Part shown: in pieces, positions 10,473-18,638 of the stretch
Layout: every line of letters starts with the position of its first letter
How positions within the stretch are numbered: the first letter of the stretch is position 1
Source of the DNA: Escherichia coli
GTDB taxonomy: Bacteria; Pseudomonadota; Gammaproteobacteria; Enterobacterales; Enterobacteriaceae
Assembly: GCF_003334355.1 (NCBI RefSeq)
Contig: NZ_QOWP01000007.1
Reading direction: 5' to 3' (one strand)
DNA length: 64,000 bases
Translations under genes and position numbers: made by a program
Notes under the pieces: model-generated
What the model was told of the DNA's origin: nothing
Databases searched by the model: none
Seen by the model: the letters and a program-made list of their open reading frames with translations, nothing else

Positions 10473-11582
10473 TCACGGGTTAGCGGGGAAAATAGCCCCC
10501 AGTACCGTCTCCTGGCTTGCGCCAGTGACGGAAGGCAGATTTCCTGGTAATCCCGCCAGCGTCCGCCAGGCAAGCCAGGCGAAAGCCAATGCTTCCATGT
10601 CATCGCCACTAATGCCAACGGCATCGGTGGTGGTGACTTCTGTGCCTGGCAGTAATGCCGCCAGACGCGCCATGAGTAGCGGATTACGACTACCTCCACC
10701 ACATACCATCAATCGTTCGCAGCCACCGCTCAACAAAACTTGTTCAGAAATGGTCACGGCGGTGAGTTCTGCCAGTGTCGCCTGCACATCTCGGGGATCA
10801 ACACCCGGAAAATGGCGCAAATGGCGCTCCAGCCAACCATAGTTAAAGTATTCGCGTCCGGTGCTTTTCGGTGCAGGTTGCGAGAAATACGGGTCGCTGA
10901 GCATATTTTGCAGCAGTGGGAGAATAACTTTACCCGCCCGTGCCCACTCGGCATCTTTATCGTAAGGTTTACCGGCCTGACGCCAGATCCAGGCATCCAT
11001 CAGCATGTTACCAGGACCGGTATCGTAGCCCCCAACCGGCTGCCCAGGAATGAGCAGTGACAGATTGGCGATGCCGCCAATATTGAGCACCATTCGTCGC
11101 TCGGTTGGGTGAGCCAGCAGCGCATGATGGAACGCAGGTACCAGCGGTGCGCCTTGTCCTCCCAAGGCAATATCGCGACGGCGAAAATCACCGACAACCG
11201 TAATTCCGGTGCGTGCCACAATTTGATTGTTATCGCCAATCTGTAAAGTGTGTGGTGCCACGCCCGTCGGTTCATGCCAGACGGTTTGACCGTGACAACC
11301 GATCGCAACTATATCTCTTGCCTGCAGATTTTGTTCCTTAAGCAAGGCATTGACCGCATCAGCAAAAAGTCGCCCGAGTTGAGTATCAAGCTGTCCAAAC
11401 TGCGAAAGTGTAAGCTGCTGGCCCTGGCAAATATCCAGTACAGCCTGTTTCAGAGATACCGGGATCGGCCAACTCAAACTTGCCAGCTGTGCGACCCGGT
11501 GTTCATCAATTGTCGCCAACACAACATCAACACCATCAAGGCTGGTGCCTGACATAACGCCAATAAAGCGGCCCGATTTCAT
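10473..11582 (-). CDS. anmK: Anhydro-N-acetylmuramic acid kinase AnmK (369 aa)
   Basis: Track ORF; N-terminal [19 protein letters not shown] typical of AnmK; length match. Confidence 0.92.
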
Positions 11583-11855
11583 AGTTCATCCTTTTTCAAT
11601 CTGACGTTTGCGCACCACTCAAACATAAACTTTTCGTGAATACCATGCGGAATGACCGATTTTTACCGTTGGTAGTAAAACATTATCTTCAAATCAATAA
11701 TCATCATGAATGTTTTGTTTATAATTGGTTGATCCTACTTTCATTATGATTTGCTCATATTTGGTAGAACATGTAACCATGGATTCACATATGCCATATA
11801 CTTTGACCATGAGGGATGCTTGCGTGGCGTTTCATGGTGAACAGGAGATTTTTCA

Positions 11856-12323
11856 ATGATTAAACGCGTATTGGTTGTTTCAATGGTAGGTCTGTCTCTT
11901 GTCGGTTGTGTTAATAACGACACCCTGTCAGGGGATGTTTATACCGCTTCTGAAGCGAAACAAGTACAGAATGTCAGCTATGGCACCATCGTTAACGTAC
12001 GTCCGGTACAGATTCAGGGCGGTGATGATTCCAACGTTATCGGTGCAATTGGCGGTGCTGTTCTTGGTGGTTTCCTGGGGAATACTGTTGGTGGCGGAAC
12101 CGGGCGTTCTCTGGCTACTGCAGCAGGCGCTGTTGCAGGTGGCGTAGCTGGTCAGGGCGTACAGAGTGCAATGAACAAAACGCAGGGTGTCGAGCTGGAA
12201 ATTCGTAAAGACGATGGTAATACCATCATGGTGGTACAGAAACAAGGCAACACTCGTTTCTCTCCGGGCCAACGTGTCGTACTGGCCAGCAATGGCAGTC
12301 AGGTGACCGTTTCTCCGCGCTAA
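11856..12323 (+). CDS. slyB: Outer-membrane lipoprotein SlyB (155 aa)
   Basis: Track ORF; lipobox LVGC; glycine-zipper stretch GAIGGAVLGGFLGNTVGGGTG. Confidence 0.93.
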   Translation: MIKRVLVVSMVGLSLVGCVNNDTLSGDVYTASEAKQVQNVSYGTIVNVRPVQIQGGDDSNVIGAIGGAVLGGFLGNTVGGGTGRSLATAAGAVAGGVAGQGVQSAMNKTQGVELEIRKDDGNTIMVVQKQGNTRFSPGQRVVLASNGSQVTVSPR

Positions 12324-12331
12324 ATAAGTTT

Positions 12332-12359
12332 GCGTGTGGTCAGGTTACTGACCACACGC
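12332..12359. terminator. Shared hairpin between convergent slyB and slyA
   Basis: GCGTGTGGTCAG/CTGACCACACGC 12-bp perfect stem. Confidence 0.7.
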
Positions 12360-12369
12360 CCCCTTCATT

Positions 12370-12810
12370 TCACCCTTTGGCCTGTAACTCAATGATATTA
12401 TGCTCAAGTTTTGCGATGAGCGTAATCAGTTGCTCCAGTTCCTCTGCGGAGATGCCATGTAATATTTCCGCGCGGGTTTTGTTAATAACAGCTTCCATTT
12501 CGCTGATCAGCGGCTCTGCCTTTTCCGTCAGTTTAATACGTTTAGCCCGACGATCGCTGGCACAAGTTTGACGCGAAATTAACCCTTTTTCTTCCAGTTG
12601 GTCCAGAGTACGGACCAGTGATGGCTGCTCGATGCCAATCGCTTTTGCCAGTTGAATTTGCGACTGGTCTGGAGGTAACTGATGGATATTGTGTAACGTA
12701 ACCCAATGGGTTTGTGTTAACTCCAGCGGTTTCAGGCGATGGTCTATCAGAGCACGCCATATGCGCACCAACCGTGCCAGATCAGAACCTAGTGGCGATT
12801 CCAATTTCAT
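12370..12810 (-). CDS. slyA: MarR-family transcriptional regulator SlyA (146 codons as drawn; annotated start may be 2 codons downstream)
   Basis: Track ORF; winged-helix MarR-like sequence recalled as SlyA; convergent with slyB across a shared hairpin. Confidence 0.92.
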
Positions 12811-12820
12811 CTCCTTATAA

Positions 12821-12832
12821 TTAGCTTGCTAA
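12821..12832. promoter_or_regulatory. SlyA-type palindrome TTAGCTTGCTAA in slyA/ydhI divergent region
   Basis: Perfect 12-bp palindrome 11 bp upstream of slyA start; matches recalled SlyA consensus TTAGCAAGCTAA. Confidence 0.6.
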
Positions 12833-13013
12833 GATATTATGCGGCTTTTAGAATAGTGTGCAGCAATTGTATTGCTAAAACAAATGTATTGCTGCATTTG
12901 GTTACCGTCAGACATATTTTTCAGAAATTGCGCGTAAATTTTTCGCACTTAAAGAATATTTATTAATCTAACGCAATATATTCGGTCGTAAAGGAATCTA
13001 CTTTGTAAAGTTT

Positions 13014-13241
13014 ATGCTCAATGCAACAGGATTGCCCTTACAAGATCTGGTGTTCGGTGCGTCCGTCTACTTTCCTCCGTTTTTCAAAGCCTTCGCGTTT
13101 GGATTCGTCATCTGGCTTGTCGTACACCGCCTGCTTCGTGGCTGGATCTACGCCGGTGACATCTGGCATCCCTTGTTAATGGATTTATCGCTGTTTGCGA
13201 TTTGCGTTTGCCTTGCTCTGGCAATACTGATTGCGTGGTAA
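13014..13241 (+). CDS. ydhI: Small inner-membrane protein YdhI (DUF1656, AaeX-like); start uncertain
   Basis: Track ORF 75 aa; two hydrophobic segments; immediately precedes ydhJ (3-bp gap). Confidence 0.8.
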
Positions 13242-13243
13242 CT

Positions 13244-14101
13244 ATGTCAATTAAAACAATTAAGTATTTCTCAACAATCATTGTAGCGGTAGTTGCGGTT
13301 CTTGCCGGATGGTGGCTGTGGAATTATTACATGCAATCTCCGTGGACACGCGACGGGAAAATACGCGCAGAACAGGTTTCTATCACCCCACAGGTGTCGG
13401 GACGTATTGTTGAGCTGAATATAAAAGACAACCAGCTGGTTAACGCGGGGGATCTTCTGCTCACGATCGATAAAACGCCCTTTCAGATCGCCGAGCTGAA
13501 CGCACAGGCTCAGCTGGCGAAAGCGCAATCTGACCTCGCAAAAGCCAATAACGAAGCGAATCGTCGTCGTCATCTCTCACAAAATTTTATTTCTGCCGAA
13601 GAACTCGATACCGCTAACCTCAATGTTAAAGCGATGCAGGCCAGTGTTGATGCCGCACAGGCGACGCTGAAACAGGCACAATGGCAACTGGCGCAAACGG
13701 AAATTCGCGCTCCGGTGAGTGGATGGGTGACTAACCTTACTACCCGCATCGGCGATTACGCTGATACCGGGAAACCGCTGTTTGCCCTTGTCGACAGCCA
13801 CTCGTTTTACGTCATTGGTTATTTTGAAGAAACCAAGTTGCGCCATATCCGCGAAGGTGCACCAGCACAAATTACCCTCTATAGTGATAACAAAACGTTA
13901 CACGGTCACGTTTCCAGTATCGGTCGGGCGATTTATGATCAGAGCGTTGAAAGTGACTCAAGCCTTATTCCGGATGTTAAACCTAACGTCCCCTGGGTTC
14001 GACTCGCCCAACGCGTTCCCGTCCGCTTTGCGCTGGATAAAGTCCCAGGCGATGTCACGTTGGTGTCGGGCACCACCTGTAGCATTGCCGTAGGTCAATA
14101 A
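13244..14101 (+). CDS. ydhJ: HlyD-family membrane fusion protein YdhJ (285 aa); track ORF trimmed to MSIKTIKYF start
   Basis: Track ORF 13202..14101 over-extended into ydhI; N-terminal TM anchor then coiled-coil, AaeA-like. Confidence 0.88.
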
Positions 14102-16113
14102 TGAACGCATCGTCATGGTCCTTGCGCAATTTGCCCTGGTTCAGGGCCACGCTGGCGCAATGGCGTTATGCGTTACGCAATACCATTGCCATGTGTCTGG
14201 CGCTGACGGTTGCCTATTATTTAAATCTGGATGAACCCTATTGGGCGATGACCTCGGCTGCAGTGGTTAGCTTTCCCACCGTTGGCGGTGTTATCAGCAA
14301 AAGCCTCGGACGCATCGCTGGCAGTTTGCTCGGAGCCATTGCGGCACTGCTTCTTGCCGGGCATACGCTCAATGAGCCGTGGTTTTTTCTATTGAGCATG
14401 TCGGCGTGGCTTGGCTTTTGTACCTGGGCCTGTGCGCACTTCACGAATAACGTCGCGTATGCATTTCAACTGGCGGGCTACACGGCTGCCATCATCGCCT
14501 TTCCGATGGTTAATATTACTGAGGCCAGCCAGCTGTGGGATATCGCTCAGGCGCGCGTTTGCGAGGTGATTGTCGGCATTTTGTGCGGCGGCATGATGAT
14601 GATGATCCTGCCTAGCAGTTCCGATGCTACAGCCCTTTTAACCGCATTGAAAAACATGCACGCCCGACTACTTGAACATGCCAGTTTACTCTGGCAGCCT
14701 GAAACAACCGATGCCATTCGTGCAGCACATGAAGGGGTGATTGGACAGATACTGACCATGAATTTGCTGCGTATCCAGGCTTTCTGGAGCCACTATCGTT
14801 TTCGCCAGCAAAACGCGCGCCTTAATGCGCTGCTCCACCAGCAATTACGTATGACCAGTGTCATCTCCAGCCTGCGACGTATGTTGCTCAACTGGCCCTC
14901 ACCGCCAGGTGCCACACGAGAAATTCTCGAACAGTTGCTGACGGCGCTCGCCAGTTCGCAAACAGATGTTTACACCGTCGCACGTATTATCGCCCCGCTA
15001 CGCCCGACCAACGTCGCCGACTATCGGCACGTCGCCTTCTGGCAGCGACTACGTTATTTTTGCCACCTTTATCTGCAAAGTAGTCAGGAATTACATCGTC
15101 TGCAAAGCGGTGTAGATGATCATACCAGACTCCCACGGACATCCGGCCTGGCTCGTCATACCGATAACGCCGAAGCTATGTGGAGCGGGCTGCGTACATT
15201 TTGTACGTTGATGATGATTGGCGCATGGAGTATTGCTTCGCAATGGGATGCCGGTGCCAATGCATTAACGCTGGCAGCAATTAGCTGCGTACTCTACTCC
15301 GCCGTCGCAGCACCGTTTAAGTCGTTGTCACTTCTGATGCGCACGCTGGTGTTACTTTCGCTATTCAGCTTTGTGGTCAAATTTGGTCTGATGGTCCAGA
15401 TTAGCGATCTGTGGCAATTTTTACTGTTTCTCTTTCCACTGCTGGCGACAATGCAGCTTCTTAAATTGCAGATGCCAAAATTTGCCGCATTGTGGGGGCA
15501 ACTGATTGTTTTTATGGGTTCTTTTATCGCTGTCACTAATCCCCCGGTGTATGATTTTGCTGATTTTCTTAACGATAATCTGGCAAAAATCGTTGGCGTC
15601 GCGTTGGCGTGGTTAGCGTTCGCCATTCTGCGTCCAGGATCGGATGCTCGTAAAAGCCGCCGCCATATTCGCGCGCTGCGCCGGGATTTTGTCGATCAGC
15701 TAAGCCGCCATCCAACACTGAGTGAAAGCGAATTTGAATCGCTCACTTATCATCACGTCAGTCAGTTGAGTAACAGCCAGGATGCGCTGGCTCGCCGTTG
15801 GTTATTACGCTGGGGTGTAGTGCTGCTGAACTGTTCTCATGTTGTCTGGCAATTGCGCGACTGGGAATCGCGTTCCGATCCGTTATCGCGAGTACGGGAT
15901 AACTGTATTTCACTGTTGCGGGGAGTGATGAGTGAGCGTGGCGTTCAGCAAAAATCACTGGCGGCCACACTTGAAGAATTACAGCGGATTTGCGACAGCC
16001 TTGCCCGTCATCATCAACCTGCCGCCCGTGAGCTGGCGGCAATTGTCTGGCGGCTGTACTGCTCGCTTTCGCAACTTGAGCAAGCACCACCGCAAGGTAC
16101 GCTGGCCTCTTAA
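14101..16113 (+). CDS. ydhK: FUSC-family efflux transporter YdhK (670 aa)
   Basis: Track ORF; start overlaps ydhJ stop (TAATG); two hydrophobic domains separated by soluble region, AaeB-like. Confidence 0.9.
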
Positions 16114-16635
16114 TTACTTAATTACACCACAGGCATAGCGTTCACCGCCACCGCCCAGCGGTTTAGGTTGATCGGACATATTATCGCCGCCAACGTGGAC
16201 CATCAGCGCTTTGTCTTTGATTTCATCCAGTGATTTCAGACGAGGCGCGATGACGGCATCGGTAGCTTTGCCGTCATTATTGACGACCAGTGCAGGCAGA
16301 TCGCCTAAATGCCCGGCACCTTCTGGCCCTTCATGTTTACCGGTATTTTGTGGATCAAGATGCCCGCCTGCGGATTCCGCGGCGCTGGCTTTGCCATCTT
16401 TGGTGGCTGGCTGGCAGCTTCCTTTGGCATGAATATGGAAGCCATGTTCACCGGGGGGTAATGCTTTCAGATCGGGCGAAAACTCCAGACCTTTATCGGT
16501 TTCAGTAATGGTGACGCTACCAATTGACTGCCCTACCCCTTGCGACGTGACGAGGTTCATCTCGACTTTTTCACTGGCAGCTTGTGCGCCGGTTGCAACA
16601 ACCAGCGCCAGAATAGCCAGACTAAAACGTTTCAT
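16114..16635 (-). CDS. sodC: Periplasmic Cu,Zn superoxide dismutase (173 aa); track ORF trimmed to MKRFSLAIL start
   Basis: Signal peptide MKRFSLAILALVVATGAQA; His-rich Cu/Zn SOD motifs (HGFHIHAKGSC, GGHLDP). Confidence 0.9.
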   Translation of the reverse strand: MKRFSLAILALVVATGAQAASEKVEMNLVTSQGVGQSIGSVTITETDKGLEFSPDLKALPPGEHGFHIHAKGSCQPATKDGKASAAESAGGHLDPQNTGKHEGPEGAGHLGDLPALVVNNDGKATDAVIAPRLKSLDEIKDKALMVHVGGDNMSDQPKPLGGGGERYACGVIK

Positions 16636-16715
16636 AGGACCTCCGTTCATTGTGCATTCCTGAATAAGTGTAAACCAGTGACACATTTTTGAACGGCGGC
16701 TATTCCTAAAAGTGC

Positions 16716-17612
16716 TTACGGTACGTCGTACCCCAGTGCCGCTTTACGGATACGAAACCATTGTTGACGGGTCATTTTCAGTGTTTCTGCTTCGACAGCT
16801 GCCCGTACGCGCTCAATTTTACCTGAACCGATAATTGGCAGCGGCTGCGATGGTAAACGTAATACCCAGGCGTAAACCACCTGTTCAATCGAGCCCGCGT
16901 TTAACTCCTCTGCCACCACAGCCAGTTCATCACGCAGCGGCTGGAAATAATCATCATTAAACAGACGACCACCACCAAGGCAGGACCACGCCATCGGACG
17001 AACACGCAGTTGTTGTAGTTGGTCGAGCGTGCCATCCAGCAGTAACGGCTGATGCACCGGGGATATTTCCACCTGATTAGTGGCAAGGGTAAACGGCAGA
17101 CGTGATTGCAACAGGGCAAATTGCGCAGGCGTAAAGTTCGATACGCCAAAATGACGCACTTTGCCGCTCTGATGCAGATGTTTGAACGCGTCCGCCACTT
17201 CATCGGCATCCATTAACGGGTCTGGTCGGTGGATTAACAGCAAATCCAGATGATCGGTCGCGAGATTAATTAGCGACTGTTCGGCGCTCTTAATGATGTG
17301 ATCGCGGTCAGTGATGTAATGACCAATGACGTTTTCTTCACGCGCGGTCGTCGCGATACCGCATTTACTGACGATTTCCATCCGTTCACGCAGGTGAGAT
17401 GCCAGTTTCAGTGCCTCGCCAAACGCCGCTTCGCACTGATAGCCACCATAAATATCAGCATGGTCCACGGTGGTCACGCCGAGATCCAGATGCTCTTCAA
17501 TAAAACTGACCAGCTGGCGGGCGGACATATTCCAGTCCATCAATCGCCAGTAGCCCATCACAAAACGGGAAAACTCCGGGCCTTGCGGCGCAATAGTAAT
17601 ACGCTGAACCAT
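16716..17612 (-). CDS. ydhF: Aldo-keto reductase family oxidoreductase YdhF (298 aa)
   Basis: Track ORF; AKR-like sequence; length match. Confidence 0.9.
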   Translation of the reverse strand: MVQRITIAPQGPEFSRFVMGYWRLMDWNMSARQLVSFIEEHLDLGVTTVDHADIYGGYQCEAAFGEALKLASHLRERMEIVSKCGIATTAREENVIGHYITDRDHIIKSAEQSLINLATDHLDLLLIHRPDPLMDADEVADAFKHLHQSGKVRHFGVSNFTPAQFALLQSRLPFTLATNQVEISPVHQPLLLDGTLDQLQQLRVRPMAWSCLGGGRLFNDDYFQPLRDELAVVAEELNAGSIEQVVYAWVLRLPSQPLPIIGSGKIERVRAAVEAETLKMTRQQWFRIRKAALGYDVP

Positions 17613-18602: not shown

Positions 18603-18638
18603 CAGGCATTTTTTATCACCAGACGACCGGGAGCCTTT

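Follow-up and report, generated by a model that had tools for sequence, protein, structure and literature searches.

The stretch of DNA analyzed here (64,000 nucleotides (nt) of Escherichia coli contig NZ_QOWP01000007.1, hereafter the window) carries the three-gene cluster ydhI-ydhJ-ydhK next to the regulator gene slyA. Gene coordinates were obtained by transferring the E. coli HS annotation in RefSeq onto the window. According to this annotation and Pfam, ydhI (13005–13241, 78 amino acids (aa) where annotated) encodes a two-helix membrane protein of the DUF1656 family, and ydhK (14101–16113, 670 aa) encodes an inner-membrane transporter of the FUSC family. Between them, ydhJ (13244–14101, 285 aa; also assigned by NCBIfam) encodes a membrane-anchored periplasmic adaptor of the HlyD/EmrA/AaeA type. 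All three open reading frames lie on the plus strand, whereas slyA (12370–12804, 144 aa, TTG start) lies on the minus strand, confirming the divergent arrangement that had been noted in an earlier reading made from the sequence alone (hereafter the sequence-only reading). The slyA product, a regulator of the MarR family, scores 277 bits against the NCBIfam SlyA equivalog (cut-off 120) and matches the solved structures 3q5f and 3deu of the PDB (E = 1e-79). The gene order anmK-slyB-slyA<>ydhI-ydhJ-ydhK-sodC is that of the E. coli chromosome, and the 3.9 kb around the cluster find a match in every one of the 5,426 complete genomes of E. coli, the best at 99.9% identity. Two start codons of the sequence-only reading have to be moved: it began slyA at ATG 12810 and ydhI at 13014, while the annotated starts are the TTG at 12804 and position 13005. 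The distance from the slyA Shine-Dalgarno sequence AAGGAG (12816–12811) is 6 nt to the TTG and 0 nt to ATG 12810.

E. coli possesses three FUSC-type pumps with adaptors, namely AaeAB, YdhJK, and MdtNOP. When aligned pairwise with the AaeXAB proteins, as the sequence-only reading had proposed, YdhI shares 33% identity with AaeX (E = 1e-5), YdhJ 41% with AaeA (E = 7e-68), and YdhK 24% with AaeB over 521 residues (E = 5e-27). The domain content is in line with these alignments. YdhI, the product of the first gene, matches DUF1656 (PF07869, 1.8e-14) and contains two hydrophobic segments. YdhJ carries the Pfam domains HlyD_D23, Biotin_lipoyl_2, and HlyD_3 behind a single N-terminal anchor (transmembrane segment 8–26 by hydropathy), and YdhK, which exhibits two clusters of transmembrane helices, matches the FUSC family PF04632 over its full length (i-Evalue 4.2e-140, model positions 1–658 of 660). 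YdhJ and YdhK are thus homologous to the MFP and FUSC families, and the proposed parts list of an AaeXAB-type module holds for all three proteins. In NCBIfam, the best models for YdhI, YdhJ, and YdhK are AaeX, AaeA, and AaeB, respectively. YdhJ scores 245 bits with AaeA (cut-off 400), 203 with MdtN, 177 with EmrA/EmrK, and 134.6 with RND_mfp (cut-off 94.9). All scores remain far below the AaeXAB equivalog cut-offs, at 21.3 vs. 82 bits for NF008615, 244.7 vs. 400 for NF007850, and 120.2 vs. 870 for NF007916, and the true aaeXAB-aaeR locus occupies a different chromosomal site in E. coli. By sequence comparison, ydhIJK is therefore a paralog of AaeXAB and not its ortholog, belonging to a module type that consists of a two-helix DUF1656 protein encoded first, an adjacent anchored adaptor of the HlyD/EmrA type, and a full-length FUSC transporter. 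Homology between ydhIJK and AaeAB has been stated explicitly before (Will 2025, PMC12506092).

The two paralogous operons share the gene order and the short junctions, and neither contains a gene for an outer-membrane protein. They differ in their regulators, as aaeXAB is accompanied by the divergent LysR-type activator AaeR and ydhIJK by the MarR-type SlyA, for which ligand-relieved repression applies, and an additional sigma-E input belongs to ydhIJK. Their substrates also differ: AaeAB is reported to export 4-hydroxybenzoate and two other aromatic carboxylates (summarized in PMC12506092), while the only reported proxy for ydhIJK is fusaric acid in Salmonella, where growth in 30 μg/ml fusaric acid is delayed in ydhIJK mutants and improved in slyA mutants (PMC6401476). 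The statement of the sequence-only reading that the substrate is undefined is thus partly out of date, although the physiological function is still without assignment (PMC12506092). Comparable modules are found in Burkholderia (Bucl8-FusCDE) and Stenotrophomonas (FuaABC), where a FUSC inner-membrane protein, a small DUF protein of 67 aa, and an adaptor occur together with fusaric acid and p-hydroxybenzoate as substrates (PMC7682875). In contrast to ydhIJK, these systems possess their own outer-membrane factor and a LysR regulator, and their genes are ordered outer-membrane factor-FusC-FusD-FusE.

Searches of the PDB sequences with single YdhK and YdhI sequences returned zero matches, and no solved structures of bacterial FUSC transporters or DUF1656 proteins were found in this way. 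A profile built from 85 full-length FUSC proteins, however, retrieved only the plant channels ALMT9, ALMT1, and ALMT12 among the solved structures (E = 1.2e-6 to 1.1e-5), with an alignment spanning profile positions 40–258. Identity between YdhK and the ALMT proteins is approximately 15%, and the similarity concerns the transmembrane and the helical cytosolic domains. The same relationship emerges from the AlphaFold2 (AF2) model of YdhK, whose predicted local distance difference test score is 93.9. In a Foldseek search with this model, ranks 1–9 are all ALMT (ALMT1 and ALMT9; probability 1.00, target-normalized TM-score of approximately 0.5), while the following matches have probabilities of at most 0.2, and nothing resembling MFS, RND, or ABC transporters exceeds 0.2. 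BLASTP of the two YdhK halves against each other is not significant, yet a profile comparison of the N-half with the C-half yields an hhalign probability of 93% (E = 3e-7). Based on profiles and the predicted model, YdhK looks like an internally duplicated fusion of two ALMT-like protomers. ALMT1, ALMT9, and ALMT12/QUAC1, which are the only solved relatives of YdhK by profile and fold, conduct organic anions. They differ from YdhK in being homodimers with one repeat per chain, whereas YdhK holds two diverged repeats in one chain and is partnered by an adaptor and a small subunit. In the AF2 model of the adaptor YdhJ, a transmembrane helix (3–31) is followed by a hairpin of two helices of approximately 32 residues each (78–109 and 118–150), a lipoyl domain, and a beta-barrel, and a membrane-proximal domain is lacking.

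Loci related to ydhIJK were collected by scanning one genome per species, resulting in 80 loci; motif conservation was counted in the 77 slyA-linked loci other than the window, and junctions and start codons in 82 loci. The order slyB-slyA<>ydhI-ydhJ-ydhK is kept in nearly all 80 loci, and the arrangement is seen in Escherichia, Citrobacter, Salmonella, Enterobacter, Klebsiella/Raoultella, Serratia, some Yersinia, Pantoea, and Erwinia. Outside of the core enteric cluster, the linkage between slyA and ydhIJK has been lost repeatedly (PMC6401476). A ydhIJK-like operon with approximately 60–63% protein identity is also present in Aeromonas rivuli (locus L079, 3243–5370), without adjacent slyA or slyB, which suggests that the pump was either transferred horizontally or retained independently, in both cases unaccompanied by its regulator.

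Within the operon, ydhJ and ydhK overlap by 1 nt (TAATG), and 2 nt separate the ydhI stop codon from the ydhJ start. The stop/start overlaps described in the sequence-only reading are hence real for ydhJ/ydhK and absent from ydhI/ydhJ. The gap between ydhI and ydhJ mostly measures 1–6 nt (2 nt in 41/82 loci), and the ydhJ/ydhK overlap amounts to 1 or 4 nt in 50/82. Such tight junctions, kept across the 82 loci, make translational coupling across ydhIJK plausible.

The window deviates from this conserved pattern at the first codon of the operon. Position 13007 is an A where E. coli HS has a G, which converts the annotated ydhI start codon from GTG to GTA (13005–13007). At the aligned position, 74 of the 82 loci have GTG and 4 have ATG, the window being the sole GTA, and the 61-mer of the window across the ydhI start has an exact match in 0 of 5,424 complete E. 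coli genomes. A Shine-Dalgarno sequence, AAAGGA (12990–12995), is conserved before the ydhI start. The sole in-frame start left in the window is ATG 13014, which would yield a protein of 75 aa, lies 18 nt from AAAGGA, and is kept in only 25/82 loci. Because the conserved start codon has been lost, this strain probably produces less YdhI, and coupled translation of YdhJ is possibly lowered as well.

Substitutions of this kind are not confined to ydhI. Across positions 747–50003, the window carries approximately 1.5 substitutions per kb relative to the nearest complete genomes. Its 77 differences from HS comprise 35 synonymous, 14 non-synonymous, and 28 intergenic changes; 58 are transitions, and G>A and C>T are the commonest. 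Tested substitutions (for example at 13711, 13903, 14745, and 15065) each occur in 0 or 1 of approximately 5,400 genomes, and in different genomes; two local substitutions other than that at 13007 are found in one genome each. Artificial noise was rejected as a source of these private substitutions due to the 35 synonymous against 14 non-synonymous changes and the intergenic excess, which indicates that the window derives from a natural, rare, and poorly sampled lineage. Further differences from HS concern other genes: internal tandem-like repeats in rsxC (193–1072), with offset self-matches of 91–94% identity, cause a length difference at the left end of the window, and a 2-nt insertion is located in the nemR-nemA intergenic region (18614–18615).

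The spacer between slyA and ydhI measures 200 bp and has a GC content of 31.5%. Its slyA-proximal part of approximately 85 bp (12808 to about 12890) is strongly conserved across Enterobacteriaceae, whereas the next approximately 100 bp have diverged between genera, and the same half-conserved pattern has been reported previously (PMC6401476). The conserved part contains the SlyA box TTAGCTTGCTAA (12821–12832), whose reverse complement, on the minus strand, is the published SlyA consensus TTAGCAAGCTAA with exact agreement at 12/12 positions. TTAGCAAGCTAA is found once in the window, where approximately 0.008 occurrences would be expected by chance (hand estimate, 2 × 64000 / 4^12). The box recurs unchanged and with the same offset in 57/77 loci, and TTAGCnnGCTAA is present in 70/77. 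As its center lies 22 bp upstream of the slyA TTG start, it corresponds to the PslyA site listed as “22 bp upstream of slyA” (PMC5797941, Table 3). It had been described as a perfect SlyA-like palindrome; its position agrees with that description, but only 10/12 positions are self-complementary, with two 5-bp arms that pair perfectly on either side of a TT center that is not palindromic.

Two additional motifs of the sequence-only reading, the second palindrome AGCAATTGTATTGCT (AGCAAT-TGT-ATTGCT, 12862–12876) and the plus-strand direct repeat TGTATTGCT (12868–12876 and 12885–12893), are present exactly where it placed them but are no better than chance and poorly conserved. A 6+3+6 palindrome that is equally good or better arises in 63% of dinucleotide shuffles of the spacer, and a direct repeat of at least 9 nt in 15%. 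The palindrome is kept in 7/77 loci, restricted to Escherichia and Citrobacter amalonaticus, and both TGTATTGCT copies in 5/77. Both motifs were therefore rejected as regulatory sites. The recurring TTGCTAA/ATTGCT strings are explained more simply by the SlyA-like site TTAGCAATACAA (12867–12878, minus strand), which was detected in a consensus scan of the spacer, agrees with the consensus at 9/12 positions, and overlaps the right arm of the palindrome. This site also occurs in C. amalonaticus, and TTGGCAATACAA is found in Enterobacter. The scan revealed another SlyA-like site, TTATTAATCTAA (12960–12971, plus strand; TTAGATTAATAA on the slyA strand), again matching at 9/12 positions and conserved in 5/77 loci, all Escherichia. 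It overlaps the −10 element of a candidate sigma-E promoter described below, and TTAGATTAATAA is listed as “161 bp upstream of slyA” (PMC5797941, Table 3), which corresponds to positions 12960–12971.

The positions of promoters in the E. coli spacer are ones that we infer from pattern matches. A candidate sigma-70 promoter-like site facing ydhI, TTGCTA-17-TAGAAT (12826–12854, plus strand), matches the consensus at 9/12 positions; its −35 element falls inside the SlyA box, and the pattern is kept in 58/77 loci. On the minus strand, the same conserved block can alternatively be interpreted as a promoter of slyA, with a −35 element TTAGCA (12878–12873) and a −10 element TATTCT (12855–12850). Further downstream, approximately 34 nt before ydhI begins, lies the candidate sigma-E promoter GCACTT-16-TCTAA (12945–12971, plus strand; reference pattern GGAACTT-16-TCNNA). 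A loose form of the pattern has 7 matches on both strands of the 64 kb, and the match at 12945–12971 is correctly placed for ydhI, while the spacer alignment shows no conservation of its −35 element outside of E. coli. A sigma-E-dependent start site at PydhIJK and a 20-fold rise in RNA upon sigma-E induction have been reported (PMC7075262), and such a promoter would add envelope-stress induction to the control of ydhIJK. Another of the seven matches, GCACTT-17-TCAAA (16687–16715, minus strand), is located just upstream of sodC on its strand and may be due to chance. An Rfam scan of positions 11500–17000 yielded nothing credible.

On both sides, the genes next to the divergent pair are convergent. 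The gene slyB (11856–12323, plus strand, HS annotation) faces slyA, and between the two lies a strong GC-rich hairpin of 12 bp (12332–12359) with a T-rich tail on the minus strand. This hairpin probably terminates slyA transcription and could be bidirectional. At the other end, sodC (16114–16635, minus strand, HS annotation) faces ydhK; the ydhK stop codon TAA (16111–16113) directly abuts the sodC stop codon (TTA on the plus strand, 16114–16116), and the zero intergenic bases leave no room for a terminator between the genes.

Binding of SlyA to the spacer, for which the sequence-only reading had called, has already been measured in E. coli by an electrophoretic mobility shift assay, with an apparent dissociation constant of 50–100 nM (Curran 2017, PMC5797941), and the primers used map to positions 12805–13004 of the window. 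Together with the exact consensus pseudo-palindrome in the shared spacer, this corresponds to the pattern known from MarR-type regulators. MarR itself and MprA/EmrR at emrAB likewise act as local MarR-family dimers on a pseudo-palindrome in a shared spacer, from which they are released by aromatic carboxylates (PMC6401476); SlyA differs in being a global H-NS counter-silencer as well. In Salmonella, SlyA represses ydhI 19-fold in a purified in vitro system, and 2 mM salicylate relieves this repression (Will 2019, PMC6401476). YdhJ rises 45-fold to >100-fold in Klebsiella pneumoniae kvrA mutants (bioRxiv 10.1101/845925) and 3.5-fold in E. coli treated with vanillin (PMC6561319).

Taken together, we consider ydhIJK to be a three-gene operon for the inner-membrane export of small aromatic carboxylates, a paralog of AaeXAB placed under the control of SlyA and sigma-E, with a probability of approximately 0.85. 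The FUSC protein YdhK would form the conduit as one chain of two homologous halves, each resembling an ALMT protomer, YdhJ would serve as membrane-anchored adaptor of the HlyD/EmrA type with a hairpin of AcrA length, YdhI would be the two-helix DUF1656 accessory subunit, and the three genes appear packed tightly enough for coupled translation. On the regulatory side, SlyA bound to the 200-bp spacer would directly repress ydhI until aromatic carboxylates such as salicylate bind to SlyA, as seen in Salmonella, and the strong YdhJ rise upon loss of kvrA suggests the same repression in Klebsiella. The SlyA box at 12821–12832 most likely serves slyA autoregulation because it sits in the slyA leader, and the weaker inner SlyA-like sites would be likelier operators of ydhI. 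As operator of ydhI, the box was attractive because of the conserved plus-strand match TTGCTA-17-TAGAAT; it is left as an unproven candidate in view of the Salmonella operator discussed below and of the alternative slyA promoter in the same block.

The physiological substrate, the energy source, and any outer-membrane partner of the pump are likewise matters of inference. The favored energy source is the membrane potential, which would drive anion export through an ALMT-like pore, as the reading of YdhK as a fused ALMT-like pair makes an electrogenic release of carboxylate anions a reasonable candidate mode of action. A tentative extension of this idea from profiles and models, which is perhaps more doubtful than probable, would view YdhK and the bacterial FUSC exporters in general as single-chain pseudo-dimeric organic-anion channels of the ALMT type rather than proton antiporters. 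The membrane potential would then power an electrogenic release of aromatic carboxylate anions, YdhJ would form a funnel in the periplasm, and YdhI would be a subunit for gating or assembly.

Several observations weigh against this explanation or qualify it. No phenotype of ydhIJK in E. coli was found in the searched literature, and it has been argued that no clear function has been demonstrated so far and that an endogenous compound, not yet identified, is the probable main substrate (PMC12506092). No gene for an outer-membrane factor lies between slyA and sodC, so that the locus by itself does not encode a complete tripartite TolC-type pump, and even AaeAB is listed without a known outer-membrane partner (“AaeAB-?”; PMC8277102). 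The Foldseek matches to ALMT have modest E-values (1.7e-3 to 5e-2) and cover approximately half of YdhK, and resemblance to a channel is no proof of channel-like energetics. Furthermore, the salicylate-sensitive ydhI operator in Salmonella is reported to be a 9/12 site near −35 of the ydhI start site and not the 12/12 box (PMC6401476). The sole 9/12 site in the spacer of S. enterica subsp. diarizonae (TTGGTAAGCAAA) is not conserved in E. coli. Finally, overproduction of SlyA in E. coli K-12 MG1655 raised ydhIJK RNA 2.2-fold (PMC5797941), a direction of control which conflicts with the data from Salmonella and Klebsiella.

This last result could mean that SlyA mainly activates ydhIJK in E. coli, relieving H-NS silencing of the AT-rich spacer. 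The low GC content would suit such counter-silencing, as would the divergence of the ydhI-proximal half of the spacer between genera, which is seen in the alignment made here and in PMC6401476, and the table that reports the rise also marks the operon as associated with H-NS (PMC5797941). Nevertheless, we regard this as unlikely, given that the increase is small and stems from multicopy expression, while SlyA directly represses ydhI in the purified Salmonella system (PMC6401476), YdhJ is massively derepressed in Klebsiella kvrA mutants (10.1101/845925), and the induction of E. coli YdhJ by vanillin (PMC6561319) fits ligand-relieved repression. It appears even less probable, to the point of being improbable, that the second palindrome (12862–12876) and the TGTATTGCT repeats are bound by a further regulator. 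Both motifs lie within the conserved spacer block, where the hexamer ATTGCT/AGCAAT is present three times, yet their frequency in shuffled spacers and their rarity among the loci argue otherwise, and the SlyA half-site TTAGCAA together with the promoter hexamers of slyA and/or ydhI explains the conserved bases better.

A more serious contender, though still the less probable view, is that YdhIJK primarily serves a sigma-E envelope-stress function or acts as a relief valve for endogenous metabolites, with the efflux of xenobiotics such as fusaric acid being incidental. In addition to the sigma-E-dependent promoter with its 20-fold RNA increase (PMC7075262) and the proposal of an endogenous substrate (PMC12506092), ydhK has been handled as a gene of the sigma-E regulon whose overexpression lowers viability (PMC2685091), and ydhK insertions are among the bloodstream fitness candidates of uropathogenic E. 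coli (PMC3855560). However, only weak changes in initiation frequency were observed at PydhIJK (PMC7075262), and the sigma-E −35 element is not kept beyond E. coli whereas the SlyA linkage is conserved. Moreover, such a function is compatible with carboxylate export and does not exclude it. The chances are about even that the operon is partly disabled in this particular genome through the loss of the ydhI start codon. A start codon occupies the affected position in 78/82 loci, the GTG>GTA change is absent from the 5,424 complete genomes, the next ATG is 18 nt away from the Shine-Dalgarno sequence and lacks conservation, and with ydhJ starting 2 nt past the ydhI stop, coupled translation could suffer. 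Conversely, ydhJ and ydhK are intact, with Q220H (ydhJ) and R322H (ydhK) as their only changes, low-level initiation at ATG 13014 may persist, and the consequence is not predictable as long as the role of DUF1656 is without assignment. A sequencing error is possible, though the remaining differences from HS have the appearance of natural divergence.

Earlier publications already cover the locus and its regulator as well as the SlyA site, the kinship to AaeAB, and a substrate proxy, and the divergent exporter-regulator arrangement is thus a correct but ordinary observation. As a discovery, the locus matters little, and the remaining openings are modest. New here are the relationship between YdhK and ALMT, the internal duplication of YdhK, and the rare GTG>GTA change in ydhI. 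The ALMT-like fold offers a testable idea for the mechanism of FUSC pumps, and the loss of the ydhI start codon provides a natural allele for probing the DUF1656 subunit; on this view, the strain would amount to a naturally occurring ydhI hypomorph.

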